DNA from: an uncultured Methanosarcinales archaeon
GTDB lineage: Archaea > Nanobdellota > Nanobdellia > Woesearchaeales > JAHJBD01
Direction: 5' to 3'
DNA length: 64,000 nucleotides
Assembly: GCA_964534665.1 (NCBI GenBank)
Contig: CAZHRT010000001.1
Location: 76,037 to 140,036, forward strand
Shown here: piece after piece, positions 2,081 to 44,046 of the stretch
Position numbering within the stretch: the stretch's first letter is position 1
Layout: each line of letters starts with the position of its first letter
Notes under the pieces: model-generated
What the model saw: the letters and a program-made list of their open reading frames with translations, nothing else
Database searches by the model: none
Told to the model about the DNA's origin: nothing
Made by a program: the position numbers and the translations under genes

Positions 2081-2434
2081 TTATCCTAATATCCTAATAT
2101 TTTTACCCTTTGGACTTTCTTTAATAAGATCGTTAATGTCAATTATTTTTGAACCAGCTTCATTAATTTTATCAACAGCTGATTTTGAAAATTGATAAGC
2201 ACTAATTACTACTTTATGATCAAGTGTACCACTACCTAAAACTTTCCCAGGAACTATAATTACTTCGTTCTCTTTTGAATACTTACTGATTCTTGAAAGA
2301 TTAACAATCCTTCTTTGCCTACTTGGTTTTTCTAAATCTTCTGCAATCCTTTTCCAAATAGCAACTTGATGCTCAGAAGCATTCTTCTTCAGTTCCATAA
2401 TCAAGTCTTGTAAGACTTTATTGGTTGTTTTCAT
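2081..2434 (-). CDS. rpl18e: 50S ribosomal protein L18e
   Basis: KTTNKVLQDLIMELKK...IWKRIAEDLEKPSRQRRIVNLSRI...VPGKVLGSG matches L18e family. Confidence 0.85.
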   Translation of the reverse strand: MKTTNKVLQDLIMELKKNASEHQVAIWKRIAEDLEKPSRQRRIVNLSRISKYSKENEVIIVPGKVLGSGTLDHKVVISAYQFSKSAVDKINEAGSKIIDINDLIKESPKGKNIRILG

Positions 2435-2443
2435 TTTTTCTTA

Positions 2444-2569
2444 TGCGGGAGACGAGGTTCGAACTCGCGCATCCACTAAGGAACTAGGCCTTTGATGGCG
2501 AATAAACGCAACGCGTTTACTTTGCTTATATCCTCAACCTAGCGCATTTGACCACTCTGCCACTCCCGC
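2444..2569 (-). tRNA. tRNA-Leu (anticodon GAG) with ~40-nt intron in anticodon loop
   Basis: Revcomp GCGGGAG TG GCA GAGTGGTCAAA TGC G CTAGG TTGAGG[intron ATATAAGC...AAAGG]CCTAG, long variable arm, GCGAG TTCGAAC CTCGT, CTCCCGC A. Perfect 7-bp acceptor, class II variable arm. Confidence 0.75.
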
Positions 2570-2593
2570 AATGTTTAAACATTAACAGAAGGG

Positions 2594-3379
2594 TTACTTG
2601 AGGTCTTTAACAAGTGTAATAAACTCATCACACTTCTCATCAATAGCTTTTGAAGCTTCTTGAACTATTTTCTTAGGTTCAAGTTGACCCCATGACTCAA
2701 CTGTAAAAATATAATCATTATTCTTGTTAACCTTAACTTTGCCTTCTGATGCTTCTTCACATGCACCGCAAAGATGACATTTTAAGAGATTATCTTTATT
2801 AACAATTACTTTATTATCTTTAAGATCAAAAACATCTACTGGACACGATTCAACAACTTTAGCAGCGTCCTTCACATCTCCAATTTCAATTTCTGCTTTT
2901 TGTTTGTAAAAAGCTAAACCAGGACTCCATTTTGAATGTACTTTTCCTTTACCCAAAACTGCAGTAGCCTCAAGTTCAATTTGTTGACCTTTAAGCAATT
3001 TCGCAATAGGCATATTAGGATAAACGGGTTTAACTCCAGAATCTTTTGAATTTATTTCGGATGCTAAAACAACAGCTGGACCTTTAGCTTTCAATGTCAT
3101 ATTTAATTGACATCTAGCACAACCTTTACCTTCACATTTACATTCATCAGGTAAATTATAAGATTTCAGGTCTGTTGTTAAAGGCAACAAACCTAGTCTA
3201 TGTGCGATCATTTCATCGTATAATATTGAACTATTTTTTCGGATTTCAACTTCTTCAACAGCCATAACAGGAACATCTCCAAGGATTGCCCTTCTCAATG
3301 AGTTAACAAAAGCTGGTGTTGATTCTCTTACCAAAAACGAGATCTTATTCTCAGATTTATCTAGAGATCTTATTTCCAT
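2594..3379 (-). CDS. rpoD: DNA-directed RNA polymerase subunit D (Rpb3 homolog) with 4Fe-4S cysteine cluster
   Basis: [46 protein letters not shown]. CxC...CxxC clusters. Operon position between S11 and L18e. Confidence 0.9.
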   Translation of the reverse strand: MEIRSLDKSENKISFLVRESTPAFVNSLRRAILGDVPVMAVEEVEIRKNSSILYDEMIAHRLGLLPLTTDLKSYNLPDECKCEGKGCARCQLNMTLKAKGPAVVLASEINSKDSGVKPVYPNMPIAKLLKGQQIELEATAVLGKGKVHSKWSPGLAFYKQKAEIEIGDVKDAAKVVESCPVDVFDLKDNKVIVNKDNLLKCHLCGACEEASEGKVKVNKNNDYIFTVESWGQLEPKKIVQEASKAIDEKCDEFITLVKDLK

Positions 3380-8391: not shown

Positions 8392-8776
8392 TTATAAAGT
8401 GAGTAGGTCAGATAAGCCACCTTCTGTTAAGGTCCTTAATGATAGTCATTTTCAGCTATCGATGACCCCCTTAGCATTTAACTTAGCGTCATCCTGACTT
8501 GCACAAACCAGGGCTATCCGTTTCATCGTTTCCTTTGGTTAATGTCAACGGATTACCTCATCCCTGTCACCAGGAACTTCACCGCATCATTCCAAGCCCA
8601 AAGGCCGTGTCGTTTCTGAGATGTTGCCTTGAGTTTCCCCAACTCACTTCCGTGAGTGATTGCTCCACCTCATTTTTGGAGTTTAACCAAAAACAAAGGT
8701 TTCAGTGGGTGGACTTTCCTCAGCAATGCCTAAACATCACCGTCAGCTAAGCCTGACCATACCCAACATATAGGAG
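8392..8776 (-). ncRNA. rnpB: RNase P RNA (archaeal type A-like), approximate ends
   Basis: Minus strand contains P4 5' strand GAGGAAAGUCC (plus 8711-8721) and CR-V ACAGAAGGUGGCUUA (plus 8413-8427). GGUCAG/CUGACC terminal pairing. Region is locally GC-richer and all overlapping ORFs look spurious. Confidence 0.75.
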
Positions 8777-9875: not shown

Positions 9876-12340
9876 TCTGTTACAATCTTAGCAGAAGCAA
9901 CTAACTCATCCCCTTCTGAAAGCCTCATCAACCTAACGCCCTGAGTTGCTCTCCCAATCATTGAAATCCCATTAACAGGAATCCTAATACATATACCTTC
10001 CCTGCTTATCATCATAATGTCATCTTCTTCAGAAACAGATCGAATAGCTCTAACCGGCCCATTCCTATCAGAACAAATAATATTCTTAACACCTACTCCA
10101 CCACGATTAGTTTCACGATATTCAGAAATCTTAGTTCGTTTACCAAAACCATTTTTAGTTACAGTTAACAAAGTTTTATTCTCTGATGCAAACACCATTT
10201 CAATAACTTTATCATCGCCTTTAAGAGTAATTCCCCTCACTCCACCAGCATTCCTACCCATTGCCCTAACCTTACTTTCATTAAATCTTATAGCCATTCC
10301 GTTTTTTGTGGCAATTATAACATCTTTTTTACCATCAGTTAATACAACATTAATTAATTCATCACCTTCGTGTAAAGTACAGGCAATTATCCCAGTGTTT
10401 CTTGGTCTACTAAATTGAGATAGATTAGTTTTCTTAACTACGCCAGTTCTAGTTGCCATAATTAAAAAATGCTCATCATCAAATTCTTTAACAGGAACAT
10501 ATGTACTAATTGTTTCATCATTTTCAAGATTCAATAAATTAACAATTGGTTTACCTTTAGCAATCCTACTGCCTTCAGGAATATTATAAACCTTTAACCA
10601 ATAAACCCTCCCCTTATTTGTAAAAAATAATAAATAAGAATGTGTATTAGCAACAAAAATATCTTCAACAAAATCCTCATCTTTTGTTCCTGCAGCAATA
10701 ACCCCTTTCCCACCACGTTTTTGTTGTTTATATGTTTCAACAGGAACTCTTTTGATATAACCTGAATGACTAATAGTGATTACCATTTCTTCAGGCTTAA
10801 TTAAATCTTCCATATCAATATCCTCATCGCCGTCTTCTGCAATACCTGTCCTTCTTTCATCACCATATTTCTCACGTATTTCAATTAATTCATTTTTTAT
10901 GATATCAAGAATCTTTTGTTCATCAGCTAATATGGTTGTTAATCTTTCAATAAGCTTAACTAATTCATCCAACTCATTTCTAATCTTATCTTGTTCTAAA
11001 GAAGTAATTTTTTGCAATTTCATATCCAAAATAGCATTAGCTTGTTTTTCAGATAATGAAAAATTAGCAATCAATGCTTGCCTAGCTTCTGCAACTGCTT
11101 TACTTTCTTTTAAGATTTTAATTGCTTGATCAATATTATCTAAAGCAATAACAATGCCTTTTAAGATATGCTCTTTATCTTTTGCAGCATTAAGATCAAA
11201 CTCTATCCTTTTCCTAACAACTTCTCTTCTATGATCAATAAAGTGTTGAAGCATCTGTTTTAAATTTAAAACACGTGGCTCATTATCAACCAAAGCAAGC
11301 ATGATAACACCAAAAGTGGTTTGCATTCTACTATGCTTATACAATTGATTCAACAAAACATCTGGATCAGCATTTTGCTTAAGTTCAATCACAACTCGCA
11401 TACCTTCTCTATCAGATTCATCTCTCAAATCAGAAATAGTATCAACTTTCTTATCTCGAACAAGGTTTGCTATTTCCTTTACCATCTCTGATTTATTAAC
11501 CATATAAGGAATTTCTGTAATAATAATTTTCTGCTTATTTTTAACCTCTTCAATATTGGTCTTAGCTCTTAAACGTAATTTACCCCTACCAGAAGTATAT
11601 GCACCAACAATCCCATTTCTACCACAAATTGTTGCACCAGTTGGAAAATCTGGTCCTGTGATACACTCCATTAACTCTCCAACAGTAATCTCAGGATTAT
11701 CCATCTGTTTAATAATACCTTCAACAATTTCATTCATGTTATGTGGAGGTATATTTGTTGCCATACCAACAGCAATACCAGAAGAACCATTTAATAACAA
11801 ATTAGGAAATTTAGCAGGAAGTACAGAAGGTTCTTTAAGACTACTATCAAAATTATCAACCATCTTAACAGTCTTTTTTTCAATGTCATGCAACATTTCC
11901 TCAGACAATTTGTTAAGTTTAGCTTCTGTATACCTCATTGCAGCAGCACGATCACCATCAATACTACCAAAATTACCTTGACCTTGAATTAAAGGATAAC
12001 GAAGAGACCAATTCTGAGCCATCCTAACCATTGAATCATAAACAGCAGAATCTCCATGTGGATGATACTTTCCCAAAACTTCCCCTACAATTCTAGCAGA
12101 CTTTCTAGAAGGCTTATTATGGAACATGCCCATATCATGCATAGCAAACAAAATTCTTCTGTGTACAGGCTTTAAACCGTCTCTAACATCAGGCAAAGCC
12201 CTTCCAACAATAACAGACATAGCATAATCTACATAACTTTGCCTCATTTCATCTTCGATTACACGAGGCACAATATTCTGCTTTTCAGGGGTATTTTCCT
12301 GATTAGATTCTTTGTTATTTTCAACCTGATTTTCATCCAT
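9872..12340 (-). CDS. gyrA: DNA gyrase subunit A
   Basis: [31 protein letters not shown], active-site Tyr region [11 protein letters not shown]-terminal beta-pinwheel repeats. 822 aa. Confidence 0.9.
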
Positions 12341-12492
12341 TTTATCGTCGAGAAAATAGTAATTCCCACATCAATTAGAATAGTGGTTTTCTTTATAAAT
12401 CTTATGGTTATGTTAGAAATAGCATTAGTGATTTCTAAGCATCCTAGAAATCTCTTTGAAATTGTAAAATTCTATAATTTAGAACTAAGAAA

Positions 12493-12624
12493 TTAACCAA
12501 TTATGTTATTTTTAACACTAAAATTCTTACCACAATAAACACATGCTTTTGATTTGCCTTTAATAATACTATTCCTACTTTCATACTTCATTTTATTATG
12601 ACATTTAGGACATCTAAGGATCAT
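12493..12624 (-). CDS. Small zinc-ribbon protein (43 aa), not in ORF track
   Basis: MILRCPKCHNKMKYESRNSIIKGKSKACVYCGKNFSVKNNIIG. CPxC...CxxC. ATG overlaps upstream ScpB TGA stop (ATGA). Confidence 0.4.
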   Translation of the reverse strand: MILRCPKCHNKMKYESRNSIIKGKSKACVYCGKNFSVKNNIIG

Positions 12625-13808
12625 TCTTCCTCTTTATCTATACTTTCAGAATCAGCTTCAAGCAAATCTTTCGCTCCTGGTTGGTCTTTTATAGGGATAC
12701 GATCATCAGGGTTTTCTTCTTTCTTTGGTTCTTGTATTTCTTCAGAAGGTTCTTCTTGGACTTCTTCTTTAACTTCTTCGCTAGATTCTTCTTTTGACTG
12801 TTCTAAACTCTCTTGTGCTTGGTCTTGTTCAGTTTCTTTTTCTGGTGTTTCTTCTACTTGTTCTTCTGGTTCAGGTCCTACTTCTTCTTTACCAGTAACT
12901 TCTTTATTATAATACCCAAAAACATGACTTACTTTATCATCAATCTTTTCTTCAGGTGCTTTAACTTCCGCTACAGCCTCAGTTCCTTCTTCAACTTCAT
13001 CTACATATTCTTCTTGATCAATTTGTTCTTCCTCAGCAACAGGTTTTTTTGGAACATCATAAACATTCATCCCATTAACTTCATCCTTAACAACTTCAGT
13101 ATGTGCTTCAGACTCTTTTGGTTTTTCTTCTTGTTGAATTTCTGACACATTAACAACATCAAGTTCTACTTCATTTCCTTCATTATCAATTAAATCAACT
13201 TCTTTATCATTTTCTTCAATTTCTTTCTTTTTCTTTGCTTCTTCTTTTAGTCTCTTTCGATGTTCTTCACGAATTTTTCTTATATCTTCTTCTTTATCTT
13301 CAATTGTTTTAGCAATAGACTCAAAATCTCTAAATTGGTCCTTTAAATTATCTTCTTTAAGATCAAAATATTCAAAAAATTTATCTGTTAACTTAATCAA
13401 CTTTGATCTACCATGTTTTTGCCTCGATATATAACCAAGTTCTTCAAGCTCCCTAAGATGATCATAAGCCTTATTACTCCTTATCCTAATCAAATCAGCT
13501 TGTTTTATAGGATATTTAAAAGCAATAACCGCTAAAGTCTCCATCAATGTTTTACTTAACTCAGTTTTAGAAACAATTTTCTTTATTAACTCCAAAAAAC
13601 TAGGTTTATTTGTTAATTTCCAATATATCCCATCATTAACAACTGTTAAAGCAGTATTTTCATTTTCAGCATAATCTTTACGTAACTCTTCTAAAGCAGG
13701 TTTTAAAGCATCTTGTTCAACCATTAACAAGTTTCCAAGCTCTTCAATAGACATTCTTCTACCAGAAGAAAACAATAGCGCCTCAACTTTCTTTTTAATC
13801 TCACTCAT
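12621..13808 (-). CDS. scpB: Segregation and condensation protein B (ScpB) with about 200-aa acidic disordered C-terminal tail
   Basis: MSEIKKKVEALLFSSGRRMSIEELGNLL...winged-helix ScpB N-terminus (EALLFaS, IRIRS...YDHLRELEELGYI). C-terminal half is E/K/D-rich low complexity. Confidence 0.75.
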   Translation of the reverse strand: MSEIKKKVEALLFSSGRRMSIEELGNLLMVEQDALKPALEELRKDYAENENTALTVVNDGIYWKLTNKPSFLELIKKIVSKTELSKTLMETLAVIAFKYPIKQADLIRIRSNKAYDHLRELEELGYISRQKHGRSKLIKLTDKFFEYFDLKEDNLKDQFRDFESIAKTIEDKEEDIRKIREEHRKRLKEEAKKKKEIEENDKEVDLIDNEGNEVELDVVNVSEIQQEEKPKESEAHTEVVKDEVNGMNVYDVPKKPVAEEEQIDQEEYVDEVEEGTEAVAEVKAPEEKIDDKVSHVFGYYNKEVTGKEEVGPEPEEQVEETPEKETEQDQAQESLEQSKEESSEEVKEEVQEEPSEEIQEPKKEENPDDRIPIKDQPGAKDLLEADSESIDKEEE

Positions 13809-14377
13809 TTGAGTGAATAGAAATCTTCTTCTTTTTTAATTTTTCCTTCTTTTTCAAGATTATCAAGCAAAGGTTTTAGTTCTTTATCAATAATCCCACT
13901 ATATTTTGAAATATCATCAGATGTACTATCACCTTTAACAGATAAAAGAACTAAAACTAAGTTTAATAGTGTTGTCCGCATATTTCTCTTTAAAAAACCG
14001 TTCTCTGCCCTTAATTGTTTGGCAACAGAATCAAGACCGTGTAATTTAGCTTGAAGATCATTTAACACACCTGCAACATCAAGATTGCTAAATTCCATTT
14101 TTTCTGGTTTTAAAACCTCAATAGATGAAGGCATATAACTAAAACAAAAACCAAACATTTCTTGAACATCCTTAACAACCATTTCTAATTCAACAAAAAC
14201 ACTCCACATCTTACCTTGCTCTTTAACATCTGAATATTCTTCTTTTAAGATAAGATAATCTGGGTTTTCCTTAATATCTTTAACATAATCCTTTATAGCT
14301 TTCTCTACGTGCTCTTTTGGTTTTCCTAAAACCTCAAGAATTGTAATAAATCTTACTTTTTTACCTTCTTCTACCAT
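13805..14377 (-). CDS. Hypothetical protein co-operonic with scpB (possible divergent kleisin/ScpA-like; unverified)
   Basis: 190 aa, 4-nt overlap with scpB start. No recognisable motif. Position suggests ScpA but sequence similarity not evident by eye. Confidence 0.4.
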   Translation of the reverse strand: MVEEGKKVRFITILEVLGKPKEHVEKAIKDYVKDIKENPDYLILKEEYSDVKEQGKMWSVFVELEMVVKDVQEMFGFCFSYMPSSIEVLKPEKMEFSNLDVAGVLNDLQAKLHGLDSVAKQLRAENGFLKRNMRTTLLNLVLVLLSVKGDSTSDDISKYSGIIDKELKPLLDNLEKEGKIKKEEDFYSLK

Positions 14378-14408
14378 TAAGTCATAGAATTAAACAGGAT
14401 TTATAAAA

Positions 14409-16178
14409 TTATTCCTTCTTTAGAATAAGATAAACAACAAACATACCCAATACAATAATTAAAAAACTTGTAATCATCTTTTTAGCTTTAAAATCATTTG
14501 ATTCATACACCAAATAAGGTTCTTTATACTTTACATAATTAGGATATAAAGAAGGTTGTATCTGTTCTTCTTTCAAAGATTCTGAATCCTTAACCTGAAC
14601 AATCTGCTTTTCTTCTTTTGTTTGAATTCCAATTACATTTATATCTTCTATTAACTGTTTATTTGTTTTCTGTTCATCTTTATTAATCAAAACTTTAAGC
14701 TTATAATCTCCTGGATCTGCATCTAAAACAATATTTCCGAGTTCAACTGTTGAAATACTCCCACCTTCCAAATAAAATGCCCTTTTATTATCCTCCCTAT
14801 CACCAGAATATGTTTTTGGTCCCCTATATACATAACTCCAAATTGCAACAGGAAACCCATCATCACCAGTATTTTCAAGCCTAACTTTAGTTACAAATTC
14901 TCTACCAAGATTAATAGATTTATCAATCTCAACAATTCGATAATCTAACTTTCCACTACTTGTTTTTTTCTCAACAACAACCTCTTCACACATTGATTTA
15001 GTGAAACCTGAAATGTCCATCTCCAAGCTATCCTCCAAATCTAACCCTTCCATAAATAATGTATATTGACCATCTTCATAATTCTGATCACAATTAGGTT
15101 TTAATTGAACAGGCAAAGTCAAAGTATAATTAGTATATTCTGAATAAACATTTGTTTTACTCTCTTTACTAACTCTCTCGTCTTCATTAGCAACCCATAA
15201 CGCAATACTATTTTTTGTTGTTTCACCTTTATGAATTTGTGCTTTAACCCTTATTGTTTGTCCAAATTTTGCTTTATTATCATTACCCAAATCATAAATT
15301 TTCTCAATCTTAAGTGAAGATTCAGAATTTCTTGCAGAACTATAAATCGCAAAAAGTTTTGTATCATAATTATTTGTTAAATCAGACTCATTACAACTTA
15401 TTTGTAAAGTTGCATTTATTAAATAAGCCATGCCTTTATCAAGATTAGGTGTATATTTTGAAGATGTCCTTTTTAAGGTAGCAGAACTGTTTGTCCAGGG
15501 TTTATATTCTTTAACAATATTACCGAAAAAATCACTGATATAAATTCTCCCAGTAATATTTGTTTTTTTATCATAAAGATTAGTTGCCCTTACTCTAAAA
15601 TCAAAATCTTCTCTATTAAACAAAGTTTTATTTAAAATAATTTCAATTTTCCAGTCACAAGTTCCATTTTCACGAATCATAAAACCAGAATTATCAAAAC
15701 CAGGGGTTGGATCTGCTAGATACCAACTATTATTCAATAAAGCCAAACTTTTTCCTGTTTCAGAACTTAAGTAACTAACATTATAAATCAACACAGAATC
15801 ATCATACAAATAAATATTTTCACCACTATTTCTTAAACCATTTCCAATTGAAGAATCTTCAACATACAATCTTACAACATCAGAATCCACATTAAAGTTA
15901 TTATAAACTCGTGTTGTATCATCAGTGATAATTGCATAACCTTTTGCAGGGATAACTGTGCCACCACCATTATATAATCCACCCTCAATAACATCTAATT
16001 CAGAATCATCACCAATCAACCAACCACTAACATCAACTTCAGAATCCCCATTATTGTAAAGTTCTATCCATTCATTTAATGATTCATCATACAAAGGATT
16101 AGGCATAATTTCATTTATTACAATATCTGCAGAAACAACTGGAATTAAGATTATAAACAATATCAAAGATATTTTCAA
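14409..16178 (-). CDS. Cell-surface protein: signal peptide, lamin-tail domain (LTD), large unknown region, C-terminal TM anchor
   Basis: N-terminal MKISLILFIILIPVVSA then DIVINEIMPNPLYDESLNEWIELYNNGDSEVDVSGWLIGDDS (LTD consensus INEim.NP...NEwIELyN.g...vdLsGW.l.D). C-terminal ITSFLIIVLGMFVVYLILKKE. Confidence 0.75.
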   Translation of the reverse strand: MKISLILFIILIPVVSADIVINEIMPNPLYDESLNEWIELYNNGDSEVDVSGWLIGDDSELDVIEGGLYNGGGTVIPAKGYAIITDDTTRVYNNFNVDSDVVRLYVEDSSIGNGLRNSGENIYLYDDSVLIYNVSYLSSETGKSLALLNNSWYLADPTPGFDNSGFMIRENGTCDWKIEIILNKTLFNREDFDFRVRATNLYDKKTNITGRIYISDFFGNIVKEYKPWTNSSATLKRTSSKYTPNLDKGMAYLINATLQISCNESDLTNNYDTKLFAIYSSARNSESSLKIEKIYDLGNDNKAKFGQTIRVKAQIHKGETTKNSIALWVANEDERVSKESKTNVYSEYTNYTLTLPVQLKPNCDQNYEDGQYTLFMEGLDLEDSLEMDISGFTKSMCEEVVVEKKTSSGKLDYRIVEIDKSINLGREFVTKVRLENTGDDGFPVAIWSYVYRGPKTYSGDREDNKRAFYLEGGSISTVELGNIVLDADPGDYKLKVLINKDEQKTNKQLIEDINVIGIQTKEEKQIVQVKDSESLKEEQIQPSLYPNYVKYKEPYLVYESNDFKAKKMITSFLIIVLGMFVVYLILKKE

Positions 16179-20147: not shown

Positions 20148-20213
20148 TTCTTTTGATTAAATTTAAATAATATGGTTTAATTCTATTTCTTATCCTATTG
20201 GCCATATTACAAT

Positions 20214-20352
20214 GCGGGGATGCCGGAGTGGCCAATCGGGGTAGACTCAAGGCAATTGAGTGCTGAGTGTTGCTTAGCAATGCGATGAAGAAACTATTTG
20301 TAAGTCATCTACTGGCTTAGTGCCTACGTGGGTTCGAATCCTACTCTCCGCA
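20214..20352 (+). tRNA. tRNA-Leu (anticodon CAA) with ~52-nt intron
   Basis: GCGGGGA TG CCG GAGTGGCCAAT CGG G GTAGA CTCAAG[intron GCAATTG...AAGTC]A TCTAC, class II variable arm TGGCTTAGTGCCTA, GTGGG TTCGAAT CCTAC, TCTCCGC A. Confidence 0.75.
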
Positions 20353-20453
20353 TTTTTTATTTTTCTCGGACTATTGTAATGTTGCACAATTCACCACTTA
20401 GGAGTAATAAATAACCCAAAGATTTATATACTAGTTATTCTTAATTTAAACAT

Positions 20454-20819
20454 ATGACTGAATATAAACCATTAAACCATGATACAATTGCAGAAGCAGT
20501 TAACGTTTACTATACTGCAGCTTTTGATTTGGATATTAATGAATCGCGAAGAAATCAAGATACTAGGGAGATTATCGCTAGCCTTGCAAAATCTCATGAA
20601 GCTGAACCGCGTTGTGGAATTCAAGAAGATCCACAAACAAAAATGACTTGGACCAAGGGACGTTCTTCAAACTTTCCAGGTGCAGATTATAGCATACAAG
20701 TTTGGAGCCCAACATATTATACACCGGGAACTAATGAAAAGTTAAAAGAAAGGATTGAACAAAGAATATGTAAAGTAGTAGAAAAATTAACTGAAGCTAA
20801 CTTTCCTGCCACTTCTTAA
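20454..20819 (+). CDS. Hypothetical protein (121 aa), atypical composition, directly downstream of tRNA-Leu
   Basis: MTEYKPLNHDTIAEAVNVYYTAAFDL... lower Lys/Ile content and locally higher GC than neighbours. Confidence 0.45.
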   Translation: MTEYKPLNHDTIAEAVNVYYTAAFDLDINESRRNQDTREIIASLAKSHEAEPRCGIQEDPQTKMTWTKGRSSNFPGADYSIQVWSPTYYTPGTNEKLKERIEQRICKVVEKLTEANFPATS

Positions 20820-27838: not shown

Positions 27839-28417
27839 TCAGAGTATTAAAAAAAGTACATGTCCAATTGCCCCAGAAAATAAGGGTACCAATAAATTAT
27901 CATCTAATTCTTCAGCAAAAACTTCAACAATAGTTGCAACAAAAGCCATCGCTAAGATTATATAAATATTATTTAAGATAATAAAACCAACAACCAAATT
28001 AATTATAAGTTCTGCTAATCCACCACTAAAAGTTTTATTTTTAAAAATAATTGTCTTACCATACCTTTTACCAATTAACGCTGCACCCATATCACCAAAC
28101 GTTGTCATTAATAAGGCTGCCAACGCAATATGAAACTCAAAAACTGCTAAAGCAATAATTGTACCAGAAATAAAATAAATAACACCATAAGGTCTATTCC
28201 TCTCTTTAGGTCTGATAAATTGTTCAAAAAACGGCGGACAAATTTCAAGCTCTAACCTAAAAAACTCAAATATTAAAAATATGATTAATAAAAAAACTAA
28301 TGCAAGTAACGCAGTAGACTTACCATAAGTTTGCTCAATAAAGAAATATCCAAACAATACAAATAAGATTAACAGATGTACTGCTTTTCTTCCAACTTCA
28401 TGAGCAAATGTCCACAT
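27839..28417 (-). CDS. CTP-dependent polyprenol/dolichol kinase-like or CdsA/CarS-superfamily membrane protein
   Basis: Multi-TM. Motif FGDMGAALIGKRYGKTIIFKNKTFSGG resembles GDxxAxxxGxxxGxxK...KTxEG of dolichol kinase/DUF92/cytidylyltransferase family. Confidence 0.55.
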   Translation of the reverse strand: MWTFAHEVGRKAVHLLILFVLFGYFFIEQTYGKSTALLALVFLLIIFLIFEFFRLELEICPPFFEQFIRPKERNRPYGVIYFISGTIIALAVFEFHIALAALLMTTFGDMGAALIGKRYGKTIIFKNKTFSGGLAELIINLVVGFIILNNIYIILAMAFVATIVEVFAEELDDNLLVPLFSGAIGHVLFLIL

Positions 28418-28472: not shown

Positions 28473-28666
28473 TACGGCAGCCGGGACTTTCGACAGTTGG
28501 ATATACAACGTATATCCTAGCTTAGAATCTCTTGCAAGATTTTTGGGCTGTTCTGATTTGAACCCGGGTCCCAAGCTCTTTCCACGAAAGTGGAAAGCCC
28601 AAAAGCTTTGCTTCTCGTGTGGGAAGCTCAGATCATAGCCACTAGACCACTGCCGTATAAATAATT
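28473..28666 (-). tRNA. tRNA with two introns (anticodon-loop and T-loop); tentatively Gly(CCC), identity uncertain
   Basis: Minus strand ACGGCAG TG GTC TAGTGGCTAT GAT C TGAGC TTCCCA[intron about 42 nt]GCTTG GGAC CCGGG TTCAAAT[intron about 70 nt]CCCGG CTGCCGT A. 7-bp acceptor and 5-bp T-stem are perfect only if the about 70-nt insert is removed. Confidence 0.55.
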
Positions 28667-28723
28667 AATTATATTCACTTATATATTAAGTTTTATAAAA
28701 GCAAAATCATTATTGAGAATAAA

Positions 28724-30052
28724 ATGCCTAAAAAAGGAATTGTACCGTTATATTATGTTGTAATGGCACACCCAAATGATGGAACTGTTGTTCCAATGCC
28801 TCCATCACAGTTTGCTATTGCTGAAGTAGCTTCACGTACAAGACAAGAATTAACAGATTTATTAGCACAAATTAACACAAGATTCTTAGATGGTTCAAAC
28901 GATTTACCATTTCTAAAACAAGCATGGGAACAAGATTTCAGAGGTCAAAAAGCAGAAAGCGCTTTTACTATTGCAGACCTAGAACATGCAGTAAAATGTG
29001 AATTAAGACCTGCTGCAAGACATGTTGTTTATAGCGGAGAGAGTATTCCGTCTTATAATTTAGTTAGACAAGAAGCATTTGGTAATGGGGAATTAGAAAC
29101 AAGAAAAGGTATGATGAAATCAGCATCACATCACGACCAAGCATCATTATCTATAAAAGCAATTCAAAGTGGTGTAGGAAAAGAAGCAGGAAAGTATAGG
29201 GATGTTACATTTAGGGCACCATTCCTAATAGAAGATGGTGGTGAAGTATTCATTAATCCTGCATACCTTGCAGATTGCACTTGTAGGGCACACAGTAAAC
29301 AAGTTGCTAGAGATTTAAGAACACCACAAAGAAATACCTATTTAGTATGCCACCACATTGCTGCTGGAATAAGAGAATTATATCTAGAAAAAGAAAGAAT
29401 TGTTCCGATAAGAATTAAAGGGTTAAGCAATAGAAGTTTAAGAGGACAAAGAGGAGCAGTTCTTAACCCATATAACTTACATGAAAATCCAGAACTTGCT
29501 TTAGAAGCAGTTGTAAGAAGATTTGTATTTGGCCATAAACTTAGCGATATAGACAGATCATTAATGGATGAAGACATTTTCTCAACCCAATATCAAGATT
29601 TAAGAAATTCTAAACCTGGACAATTAAGAAGAGAAGTTGTTCAATCTACACAAAACTTTCCAGGAGTATATGGCAAAATTAAAGAAGAAATGATCTCTGC
29701 ACTTACAGAACATGGATATGAATATTTAGGAAATGCAATTTCATTTAGAGACACAGAATATGAAACAGTCTCAAAAGTATTCGGAAATAGGCATAGTGGC
29801 AAAATGATACATATACTATATGATCCTTCAGTTGGTATAAACAGCCCTCATTTCTTATTAAAACTCAGACCAGGACAAGTAGACACCCAATATGGTGATC
29901 CTTTAAATCAACTGCCAGACAACCCAGTAGCGTGTGTAAACAGGCCCTTTTTAGAAACAGATGATATGACTGGTGTTGATAGAGTATCTTTAGTAAAAAC
30001 ACCAGTTAGCATACTAACAGTAAATGCCAGAAAACAATTATATACAGAATAA
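28724..30052 (+). CDS. Hypothetical protein (442 aa), compositionally atypical (R/Q/H/A-rich, locally higher GC)
   Basis: MPKKGIVPLYYVVMAHPNDGTVVPMPPSQF... no recognised motif. Directly adjacent to a tRNA gene. Confidence 0.5.
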   Translation: MPKKGIVPLYYVVMAHPNDGTVVPMPPSQFAIAEVASRTRQELTDLLAQINTRFLDGSNDLPFLKQAWEQDFRGQKAESAFTIADLEHAVKCELRPAARHVVYSGESIPSYNLVRQEAFGNGELETRKGMMKSASHHDQASLSIKAIQSGVGKEAGKYRDVTFRAPFLIEDGGEVFINPAYLADCTCRAHSKQVARDLRTPQRNTYLVCHHIAAGIRELYLEKERIVPIRIKGLSNRSLRGQRGAVLNPYNLHENPELALEAVVRRFVFGHKLSDIDRSLMDEDIFSTQYQDLRNSKPGQLRREVVQSTQNFPGVYGKIKEEMISALTEHGYEYLGNAISFRDTEYETVSKVFGNRHSGKMIHILYDPSVGINSPHFLLKLRPGQVDTQYGDPLNQLPDNPVACVNRPFLETDDMTGVDRVSLVKTPVSILTVNARKQLYTE

Positions 30053-30057
30053 AAAAA

Positions 30058-30342
30058 TTATTCAGCAGCTTCTTCTTCAGAACTATGACTTGGTATAGCT
30101 GCTTTGCTAATAATCATTATATCACCAATACTCTTAACTAATTGATGAGGAACAATTACTCCTTTAGCAGAACCCAATACTTGTGATAAGAACGAATTCT
30201 TTGTTGCACGCACTCTCCACCCGAATACTTTTGTTTGTGTTAATATTGATTCTTCAATATCTCCAAAATATTCGCCTTGATCTGTAAATACGCGCATATC
30301 ATAAGTTCCGGAAATTCTTTTCATCTTTAGCATGCAAACCAC
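30058..30342 (-). CDS. PRC-barrel domain protein
   Basis: 94 aa, KRISGTYDMRVFTDQGEYFGDIEESIL...VKSIGDIMIISK pattern of small archaeal PRC-barrel proteins. Confidence 0.55.
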   Translation of the reverse strand: MVCMLKMKRISGTYDMRVFTDQGEYFGDIEESILTQTKVFGWRVRATKNSFLSQVLGSAKGVIVPHQLVKSIGDIMIISKAAIPSHSSEEEAAE

Positions 30343-42687: not shown

Positions 42688-42920
42688 ACAAACAAAGGAA
42701 ACTAATTCGTGGCGAATTAATCGGCCTCGTAATAGAAGTTCCAAGTGATGGTCTCAAAGGAAAAATCATTGATGAAACAAAAAACACAATAATCATTGAC
42801 GTAAATGGTAAGAAAAAAACCATAATAAAAAACAAAGAAATCAAATTCAAAGATCAAAAAATAACAATAAACAGTGAAAAACTAAGAGTAAAACCAGAAG
42901 AGAGGATAAAATTAAGATGA
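42684..42920 (+). CDS. rnp1: RNase P protein component 1 (Rpp29/Pop4)
   Basis: ELIGLVIEVPSDGLKGKIIDETKNTIII and position between sui1 and rps17 typical for archaea. Confidence 0.8.
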   Translation: MNKQRKLIRGELIGLVIEVPSDGLKGKIIDETKNTIIIDVNGKKKTIIKNKEIKFKDQKITINSEKLRVKPEERIKLR

Positions 42921-43297
42921 CTAACAAAATCAATTTACGGGGAAGGTCCTTTGTATGTGTAGTAGTATCAACAAAAATGCATAAAACTGCAGTAGTTGAA
43001 TGGGAAAGAAGATACTACATGCCAAAATATGAAAGATACGAAAAGAGAAGAACCAGAATAAAAGTTCATATCCCAGATTCAATCAAAATTAAAGACGGAG
43101 ACATAGTTAAAATATCAGAATGTCGACCATTAAGTAAAACTAAAAACTTTACAATTATATGCAAAGTCGGAAAAGAAGAAGGCTTCAAAGAACGTATGGA
43201 AGCTGAAGAAGAAGGCAAAGTAAAAGATAAAGAAATATTAAAAGAAAAGCCAACAGAAAAAGAAGAAAATGAAAGCGATAAAAGCGAAAGTAACTAG
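42917..43297 (+). CDS. rps17: 30S ribosomal protein S17 (uS17) with K/E-rich tail
   Basis: RGRSFVCVVVSTKMHKTAVVEWERRYYMPKYERYEKR. Confidence 0.9.
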   Translation: MTNKINLRGRSFVCVVVSTKMHKTAVVEWERRYYMPKYERYEKRRTRIKVHIPDSIKIKDGDIVKISECRPLSKTKNFTIICKVGKEEGFKERMEAEEEGKVKDKEILKEKPTEKEENESDKSESN

Positions 43298-43670
43298 GGG
43301 ACTTCCAGTAGGTAGTGTTGTTGATACTTGTGACAATTCAGGTGCAAGAGTAGTTAGAATATTTGGAGTAATCCAAAAAAAGACAGTAAAAGGTAGAAGA
43401 TCTGCTGCCGGAGTTGGGGATTTAGTAATGGTTGCAGTAAAAAAAGGTAGACCTGACATGAGAAAACAAACAACTTTTGCTATTGTAGTAAGACAAAAAA
43501 AAGAATACCGAAGAAGAAACGGAATGAGAATCAAATTTGAAGATAATGCTGTTGTTGTACTTAAGGACGAAAAAGGAAATCCAAAAGGAACAATTTTCAA
43601 AGGCCCAATTGCTAAAGAAGCAACTGAAAGATGGCCAGGAATTGCAAAAGTTGCAAAAATAGTTGTATAA
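43269..43670 (+). CDS. rpl14: 50S ribosomal protein L14 (uL14)
   Basis: VDTCDNSGARVVRIFGV..., GDLVMVAVKKGRPDMRK. Confidence 0.9.
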   Translation: MKAIKAKVTRGLPVGSVVDTCDNSGARVVRIFGVIQKKTVKGRRSAAGVGDLVMVAVKKGRPDMRKQTTFAIVVRQKKEYRRRNGMRIKFEDNAVVVLKDEKGNPKGTIFKGPIAKEATERWPGIAKVAKIVV

Positions 43671-43671
43671 A

Positions 43672-44046
43672 ATGAAAAAAATCGTAAAAAGTTGGAAGAG
43701 TAGTATTCAGCCAAGAAAGCAAAGAAAATATAGGTATAACTCTCCACTACACAAAAAACAAAAACTTGTTTCATCACACTTATCAAAAGAACTAAAACAA
43801 AAATACAATAAAAGAAGCATTGGAATAAAACTTGGTGATAAAGTAATAATCGCAAGAGGACAATTTAAAAATAAAACAGGAAAAATCGAAAAAGTTGACC
43901 TAAAGAAATCAAAAGTTATTGTATCAGGAATTGAAATCGAAAGAAAAGATGGAACAAAAACTAAACCATTAATTGAACCATCAAATTTAATTATCACTGA
44001 ACTTATAATTGAAGACAAAAAAAGAAAGAAAATACTCGACAGGTGA
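43672..44046 (+). CDS. rpl24: 50S ribosomal protein L24 (uL24)
   Basis: KOW motif IKLGDKVIIARGQFKNKTGKIEKV. ATG at 43672 just after rpl14 stop (track start 43663 is a TTG). Confidence 0.85.
   Translation: MKKIVKSWKSSIQPRKQRKYRYNSPLHKKQKLVSSHLSKELKQKYNKRSIGIKLGDKVIIARGQFKNKTGKIEKVDLKKSKVIVSGIEIERKDGTKTKPLIEPSNLIITELIIEDKKRKKILDR

Follow-up and report, generated by a model that had tools for sequence, protein, structure and literature searches.

A probably resident SWIM-like zinc-finger gene in a gene-turnover slot between a PRC-barrel gene and tRNA-Gly(CCC) of a Woesearchaeota-type archaeon

In the 64,000-nucleotide stretch of an archaeal chromosome analyzed here (GenBank assembly GCA_964534665.1, contig CAZHRT010000001.1, positions 76,037 to 140,036; hereafter the window), an open reading frame (ORF) for a protein of 442 amino acids (aa) lies between a small PRC-barrel gene and a tRNA-Gly(CCC) gene. 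A sequence-only reading of this DNA had described the ORF as a compositionally atypical ORFan without recognisable motif, and had suggested that it could be what is left of an element inserted at the tRNA gene, or else a laterally acquired gene. The results presented here point to a different origin: the 442-aa gene is probably a resident, selected and lineage-restricted gene for a SWIM-like zinc-finger protein, situated in a turnover slot between two core features. The ORF itself is real, as had been claimed. It starts with ATG, spans 28724..30052 on the + strand and codes for a protein of 49.7 kDa with a pI of 7.7. In public records it is labelled only as 'hypothetical protein'; it belongs to a small family of DPANN archaea that had not been described before. 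The same sequence, unchanged, recurs on 23 contigs of several samples, and the gene order is the same on each. The gene between the PRC-barrel gene and tRNA-Gly(CCC) would be a functional and long-resident part of the chromosome.

The 442-aa gene is under purifying selection. In comparison with a 91.5%-identical strain (L001; loci retrieved for comparison carry L numbers), the ratio of nonsynonymous to synonymous substitution rates (dN/dS) is 0.118 at a dS of 0.32. Furthermore, the gene is present at the same gene-order position in the divergent relative L007, where no mobile signature was seen, so that synteny, too, gives no sign of a mobile origin. The order in L007 is PCNA, p142, mem192, tRNA-Gly(CCC), a 453-aa paralog, a 440-aa ortholog, PRC, TraB and p255. 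The ortholog (L007 6703-8025) is 44% identical to the 442-aa protein and thereby lies within the range of 39-82% found for the flanking genes, of which PRC (82%), PCNA (71%), RNase J (65%) and TraB (59%) are better conserved than mem192 (50%), p255 (48%) and p142 (39%). In its divergence, the 442-aa gene is thus on a par with the less conserved of its neighbours, which agrees with inheritance from an ancestor common to the window and L007 lineages.

The atypical composition that had been reported for the ORF was confirmed for the amino acids, is modest with respect to GC content, and does not extend to the synonymous sites, where a foreign gene would have been expected to stand out. The GC content of the ORF is 0.351 as compared to 0.310 +/- 0.027 in the other window ORFs (z=1.5), six of which match or exceed it. 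The excess sits wholly in codon positions 1 and 2 (GC1+2 0.445 vs 0.375), whereas the GC content of the third position (GC3) is 0.163 vs 0.180 +/- 0.035 in the window. Synonymous codon usage, assessed as the leave-one-out likelihood of codon choice given the amino-acid sequence, is indistinguishable from that of the window (z=+0.11, rank 38/72 among the window ORFs), and the preferred codons AGA, TTA and GCA/GCT are those of the host. Because synonymous usage is typical of the window, the extra GC reflects amino-acid content only. Relative to the rest of the window, the protein is enriched in His (2.2-fold), Gln (1.7-fold), Arg (1.7-fold) and Ala (1.3-fold) and depleted in Lys (0.42-fold) and Ile (0.56-fold). 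Its R/(R+K) ratio of 0.59 is the highest among 71 window ORFs, while ten other ORFs exceed its total amino-acid chi-square of 60.9. The same shift relative to neighbouring genes, with lower K+I+N and higher R/(R+K), was observed for family members in five other host backgrounds, including L007 with its two copies, L089, L093 and L094, and GC3 of these members is at or below the host mean. The family member in L097 is of ordinary composition. Thus, the odd composition follows the protein family in most of the hosts examined and is not a signal of a donor genome; with synonymous sites being host-like, it is a trait of the family and not a foreign trace.

The designation as an ORFan had to be given up. 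A word-indexed protein search returned a 93%-identical fragment as the sole match, and a scan of GTDB genomes queried with the 442-aa protein itself as well as a first metagenome scan for the family found nothing. HMMER, run exhaustively against 1.84 billion representatives, however, detected 15 cluster representatives with E-values from 4e-198 to 5.5e-4. Further members beyond these 15 come from L007, L096 and L097, the latter two being recovered in a second metagenome scan with a subgroup A7 query. Across 17 aligned family sequences, the N-terminus and many other columns are kept. The alignment displays an N-terminal motif GIxP...PPSxFAEA, a central motif CQCP...CYHxAxAL and a C-terminal pattern GYxFxGFAxxFxGTxYET...HIxYD...P...DDRT. 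F341 and P375 are invariant, and no residue of catalytic type is invariant in this alignment.

Nor is the protein devoid of a recognisable motif. The central motif contains a conserved SWIM-like signature, C185-x-C187-x21-C209-x-H211, encoded at 29276..29356 (+), whose cysteines and histidine are predicted metal ligands; all four are present in 12/16 full-length family members. Searches of Pfam, NCBIfam, PHROGs and PADLOC gave nothing meaningful for the 442-aa protein or any other family member, and PDB sequence searches with the single sequence and with a profile gave no match for the 442-aa protein. When excised segments of family proteins were compared with Pfam, SWIM (PF04434) was the only family that recurred, with scores of 16.3 bits (E 0.007, P0015) and 12.1 bits (E 0.15, P0010) in 2/7 segments, both below the gathering threshold of 19.6 bits. 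The finger is therefore best described as SWIM-like, its membership in PF04434 staying below threshold.

An AlphaFold2 model of the 442-aa protein, built with a 15-sequence alignment, reached a predicted local distance difference test score (pLDDT) of 81.8 and a predicted TM-score (pTM) of 0.86; the C-terminal half modelled separately gave a pLDDT of 83.7. In the model, strand 182-185 bears the CxC at its end, where a six-strand region comes to its close, and helix 210-223 begins with the CxH; the loop 191-201 is of low confidence. The proteins of this family, about 450 aa long, would accordingly possess a central SWIM-type C-x-C...C-x-H finger in which a beta-strand region is followed by a helix, flanked by a predicted N-terminal hairpin-plus-helix module and a predicted C-terminal alpha/beta domain, neither with a detectable relative. 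Foldseek comparisons gave nothing significant: the best E-value of the full model was 0.24 in PDB and 0.07 in BFVD, and that of the C-terminal-half model was 0.15 in PDB. The top matches, at noise level, were Ran-binding/PH domains, meganucleases and a type III secretion system chaperone. A capsid, an RNase-H/MULE transposase and a known enzyme fold were rejected, as Foldseek against PDB and BFVD would have detected such folds.

SWIM domains elsewhere have a non-catalytic binding or adaptor role for nucleic acid or protein. The domain was reportedly described by Makarova, Aravind and Koonin in 2002. The 442-aa family resembles SWIM proteins in the order of its ligands, C-x-C...C-x-H, and in a local consensus, CQCP...CYHxAxAL, like the classical pattern. 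The signature CxCxnCxH has been restated (PMC6130280), and the domain also occurs in Shu2 (PMC5727457). In the AlphaFold2 model, the placement of CxC on a beta-strand and of CxH at the opening of a helix corresponds to SWIM as well, and the role to be expected of the 442-aa protein by analogy would likewise be binding, not catalysis. Unlike SWIM proteins, the family scores under the Pfam gathering threshold, has a spacer of 21 aa in the 442-aa protein and a far longer one in some members, lacks MULE transposase, SNF2 helicase, MEKK and Rad51-paralog partners, carries two flanking domains without sequence or structural relative, and has lost the ligands in three members. As the family keeps none of its catalytic-type residues throughout, we infer that the 442-aa protein is a binding protein and not an enzyme. 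Motif and missing catalytic-type conservation together suggest a zinc-dependent role, in which the finger would bind zinc and the protein, without being a catalyst, would bind nucleic acid or a partner protein or serve as an adaptor for either.

The surroundings of the gene were compared by using the PRC protein as bait for relatives' loci in GTDB genomes. The slot was compared across the best 80 of 493 PRC relatives, each from a species-representative genome. The PRC proteins of these 80 loci show 78-96% amino-acid identity, are almost all labelled Woesearchaeota, Nanoarchaeota or Nanobdellota, and lie in the common gene order Hef, MBL, p255, TraB, PRC. Given these labels and this common order, the host is a Woesearchaeota-type DPANN archaeon and the PRC-barrel gene a core Woesearchaeota gene outside any element. 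Many contigs that are labelled 'uncultured Methanosarcinales archaeon' (L017, L020, L023 and others) have the Woesearchaeota gene order and PRC proteins that are 78-90% identical; this label looks like a placeholder or an error.

The small convergent PRC-barrel gene had been recognised correctly at 30058..30342 (-). Whereas this ORF call begins with GTG at 30342, the ATG at 30333 is the likelier start according to alignment with the L007 ortholog, giving a gene of 91 aa at 30058..30333 (-), which is separated from the stop of the 442-aa ORF by 5 bp. Its match to Pfam PRC (PF05239) is just below the cut-off (19.8 vs 21.2 bits, E 7.8e-4, 62/78 profile positions). Small archaeal PRC-barrel proteins, CdpB1-3 of Haloferax, act in cell division (bioRxiv 10.1101/2023.03.28.534520). 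Like these, the window protein of about 91 aa consists mostly of one PRC barrel, and it is highly conserved across Woesearchaeota; a point of difference is its Pfam match just under threshold. By analogy, it may correspond to the CdpB-type cell-division proteins. A functional link between the 442-aa family and the PRC barrel was rejected, since the two adjoin only at this gene-order position. On the 3' side of tRNA-Gly, the gene of a 192-aa membrane protein (mem192, 27839..28417, -) has orthologs past PRC and tRNA-Gly in many loci, which marks it as the conserved anchor at the other side of the variable interval.

Between these anchors, the distance from PRC to mem192 ranges from 22 bp to 3 kb among relatives. 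The cargo lies mostly on the 5' side of tRNA-Gly, depends on the lineage, and comprises a zinc-ribbon pair, a Na/Ca exchanger, Fic/DOC, an ORF combining LAGLIDADG with a helix-turn-helix (HTH), TrmB-type regulators and ORFans. The commonest occupant is the adjacent pair of zinc-ribbon genes of about 95-99 aa with weak HypA/Zn_ribbon matches (L075 10285-10868, -), with equivalents in L045, L047, L015, L043, L020, L023, L054 and L016. Because the interval holds different cargo across Woesearchaeota, it can be considered a hot spot of gene turnover from PRC to tRNA-Gly, with the 442-aa gene as an accessory occupant. The gene is present in L007 and absent from L009 and about 77 other loci, which have other cargo or none; this pattern is one of turnover and does not outline a bounded element. 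As side observations, a conserved 74-aa basic ORF is often found between the tRNA and mem192 in relatives, and Fic/DOC genes occur in the slot of L023 (960-1835, -) and in that of L054, which has the LAGLIDADG+HTH ORF as well (L054 10683-11531, -, and 12565-13329, +). In L054, the LAGLIDADG+HTH ORF is located about where tRNA-Gly is expected, and an anticodon-arm pattern search found no tRNA-Gly in this locus; the ORF might be an intron-borne or tRNA-disrupting homing endonuclease.

The tRNA gene next to the 442-aa gene is indeed a multi-intron gene, as had been noted. Unspliced, it was missed by default ARAGORN, which reported zero tRNAs in the window, and by Rfam, which reported one elsewhere. 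After in-silico removal of two introns, ARAGORN calls tRNA-Gly(CCC) both in the window and in L007 (5073-5228, likewise with two introns). In the window, the gene occupies 28473..28656 (-) with exons 28656-28620, 28577-28556 and 28485-28473. The first intron (28619-28578, -, 42 nt) is at position 37/38, the second (28555-28486, -, 70 nt) in the T-loop at about 60/61, with a junction that is ambiguous by 1 nt; putative bulge-helix-bulge motifs at the two introns were read by eye. Acceptor stem, D arm, anticodon arm (UUCCCA) and T arm can all be read on the - strand. Between window and L007, pair 6:67 of the acceptor stem shows a compensatory change on both sides, and in pair 27:43 of the anticodon stem a one-sided change turns U-G into C-G. 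Between PRC and mem192, tRNA-Gly(CCC) is present in at least 17 Woesearchaeota loci (within L013-L088) and has 0, 1 or 2 introns there, at 37/38 and/or in the T-loop. The two-intron forms of tRNA-Gly(CCC) are missed by ARAGORN with default settings and by Rfam, the latter at its gathering as well as at an E-value threshold. Multi-intron archaeal tRNA genes and those with non-canonical bulge-helix-bulge introns have been reviewed (PMC4090602), and a broad-specificity endonuclease is known from ultrasmall archaea (PMC3239211). With one canonical 37/38 intron and one T-loop intron, tRNA-Gly(CCC) resembles the intron-containing tRNAs of Crenarchaeota and DPANN type, and nothing about it is unusual for the archaeal multi-intron class. 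Its 5' end (28656) faces the 442-aa ORF, and its 3' end faces mem192. The distance to the ATG of the ORF is 67 bp instead of the 58 bp given earlier. This AT-rich divergent spacer (28657..28723) is predicted to hold TATA-like promoter elements for both tRNA-Gly and the 442-aa gene, and the adjacency of the two would reflect a shared promoter spacer in a compact genome, not integration.

Several observations weigh against a resident, selected gene of a SWIM-like family. A family member occupies this site in only 3/~80 related loci, namely in the window, in L007 and, as a remote further member near PRC, in L035. In the closest GTDB representative, L009, the slot holds an unrelated 331-aa ORF (2142-3137, -), which is convergent to PRC, Arg/Gln/Asp-rich and not Lys/Ile-rich, and without Pfam match; homology to the window, about 72% at the nucleotide level over p255, TraB and PRC, ends exactly at the PRC stop codon. 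The L001 copy contains an in-frame stop at codon 318 (L001 2034-2036), seen in 3 samples. In addition, L001 homology starts only at window position 28674 and everything upstream differs: an unrelated 300-aa ORF (L001 125-1027, +) lies directly upstream of the conserved putative promoter and replaces the tRNA. Its composition resembles that of the 442-aa gene (K+I+N 0.16, GC3 0.19), and it has no homologs in any locus retrieved. The stop and the different upstream neighbour suggest that the gene is dispensable and the junction recombinogenic. In L097, a distant family member (9971-11344) is followed by a 135-aa ORF and, at distances of 0.5 kb and 3 kb, by two Phage_integrase-family genes (11859-12632, +, and 14287-14823, -); a search for an att repeat at this member was negative. 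As to the finger, Pfam SWIM misses the full proteins and the excised segment of the window protein itself, and three members lack the ligands. One of them is the tandem paralog of L007 (5305-6666, +, 453 aa), which is 36% identical to the adjacent ortholog and has lost all four putative ligands. Given these three losses, zinc binding is not a requirement for every member.

These points bear most on an explanation that we consider possible, if clearly less probable, in which the gene is laterally exchanged accessory cargo. The family would move among DPANN genomes, perhaps on integrase-bearing elements, and would have landed in the PRC/tRNA-Gly hot spot, with synonymous sites having since drifted towards the host and amino acids having lagged behind. 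The rarity and patchiness of the family, with 15 representatives among 1.8 billion and 3/~80 loci at this site, speak for such an exchange, as do the presence of other accessory or selfish genes (Fic/DOC, LAGLIDADG, ORFans) in the slot, the difference of L001 directly upstream from window position 28674, the tyrosine-recombinase genes close to the L097 member (at 0.5 kb and 3 kb), and the GC3 of both L007 copies, which at about 0.27 is some 3 standard deviations below the 0.36 of their 7 neighbours. Furthermore, the genomic contexts of members differ between hosts. In L089, the member lies among aIF5B, NDK, L24e, S28e and L7Ae, following aIF5B; in L092, it is found after Nop5 and an intron-containing tRNA-Met(CAT) and before HIT; in L093, AsnC and a methyltransferase precede it; in L094, it is located between a Drg GTPase and, farther on, radical SAM and ScpA/B; and in L096, it is next to Dph2. 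A TrmB-type regulator is divergent upstream of the member in L091 and L097. With the exception of L097, these are chromosomal neighbourhoods of archaea, and that most other members have housekeeping genes around them favours a resident gene. Against lateral exchange stand the host-typical codon usage, the divergence of the L007 ortholog, which equals that of the flanking core genes, the lack of repeats, of a local integrase and of viral or plasmid homologs, and the odd composition that members have in common in hosts of different GC content. The earlier suggestion of a laterally acquired gene retains some support from the rarity at the site, the variable cargo and the L097 recombinases.

It is quite unlikely that the protein has tRNA or its introns as target, for instance as a cofactor of their processing or modification, and is co-regulated with the intron-bearing tRNA via the shared divergent promoter. 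A member is divergent beside an intron-containing tRNA in two independent contexts, once at tRNA-Gly(CCC), as seen in the window and in L007, and once at tRNA-Met(CAT) of L092, but no tRNA is adjacent in seven other contexts, and 2/~9 is near chance by our own estimate, which assumes about 45 tRNA genes per 1000 genes. Moreover, the family is missing from most Woesearchaeota that possess this multi-intron tRNA, and Foldseek against PDB revealed no similarity to a known RNA-processing fold. A link to tRNA genes as a trait of the family was rejected, there being only 2 independent cases.

Even less can be said for the proposal of the sequence-only reading, taken to mean that the gene is left over from a virus or plasmid which had entered the tRNA gene by site-specific integration and has since decayed; we regard this as very improbable. 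Like tRNA-targeted integrative elements, the 442-aa gene adjoins a tRNA gene and is of atypical amino-acid composition, and, as in tRNA-targeted islands, gene content near tRNA-Gly varies in relatives, with selfish genes (Fic, LAGLIDADG) in some. Integrated elements, however, generally lie on the 3' side of a tRNA gene, and here the cargo is on the 5' side. No stretch of at least 12 nt of the tRNA-Gly body recurs in the 64-kb window, and thus no att duplication came to light; the 12-mers that do recur come only from AT-rich spacers and are at chance level. The earlier statement that no integrase is evident holds: none was detected within about 10 kb on either side of the 442-aa gene, according to precomputed Pfam annotation of the identical contig L002 and a direct scan of the flanking ORFs. 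No match turned up by tblastn in phage and plasmid records, in PHROGs or PADLOC, or in three scans of IMG/VR. Host-like codon usage together with purifying selection argues against a decayed remnant, and so does the same arrangement at the same site in the divergent L007, whose flanking genes are only 39-82% identical. Codon usage like that of the surrounding DNA and synteny kept in a relative without mobile signature are also the two findings that the sequence-only reading itself had named as refuting its proposal. tRNA-Gly(CCC), finally, keeps its place as a syntenic anchor and is intact in every lineage. That the ORF is spurious or a dead pseudogene, as the in-frame stop in L001 and the mere 'hypothetical protein' in public records could suggest, is negligible as an explanation in view of a dN/dS of 0.12, 17 homologs with conserved columns, a confident AlphaFold2 model and an identical protein on 23 contigs from several samples.

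The window as a whole is an AT-rich archaeal chromosome segment of about 31% GC, which carries PCNA, RNase J and Hef genes, an archaeal RNase P RNA (8403-8762, -, 107.8 bits) and an intron-containing tRNA-Leu(GAG) (2443-2570, -). Next to another intron-containing tRNA gene, tRNA-Leu(CAA) at 20213..20353, a second ORF had been singled out as similarly atypical. This 121-aa ORF exists (20454..20819, +, 100 bp 3' of the tRNA), while its codon usage is typical (z=-1.4). A search for an att repeat of tRNA-Leu(CAA) found none, and the word-indexed search returned no homolog except the ORF itself; it remains a true ORFan at word-indexed sensitivity and is without mobile marks. The most extreme amino-acid composition in the window belongs to an ORF at 43238-43774 (-; codon usage z=-3.7). 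As it is overlapped at both ends by + strand ORFs (42917..43297 and 43672..44046), it is probably a spurious antisense ORF.

Overall, our analysis corrects the view of this locus: an atypical amino-acid content beside a tRNA gene had mimicked a trace of horizontal transfer, and GC content by codon position together with gene order instead points to a resident and selected gene. At the same time, a small unannotated family from DPANN-type contigs could be defined, whose predicted domains match nothing apart from the SWIM-like finger. Many families of DPANN genomes are uncharacterised. It is tempting, if doubtful, to go further and to see in the 442-aa protein the founding member of an undescribed family, so far known from archaeal contigs of DPANN type only, which apart from the SWIM-type finger would have a fold without solved or viral predicted counterpart, and which, encoded in a fast-turnover island of conflict and host-interaction genes such as Fic toxins, homing endonucleases and ORFans of odd composition, would serve as an accessory factor of a symbiont and not in housekeeping. 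Our results also show that multi-intron tRNAs of such genomes escape tRNA finders at default settings. The interval from the PRC-barrel gene to tRNA-Gly(CCC) may now be mined for accessory, conflict or host-interaction genes of these poorly understood symbionts.

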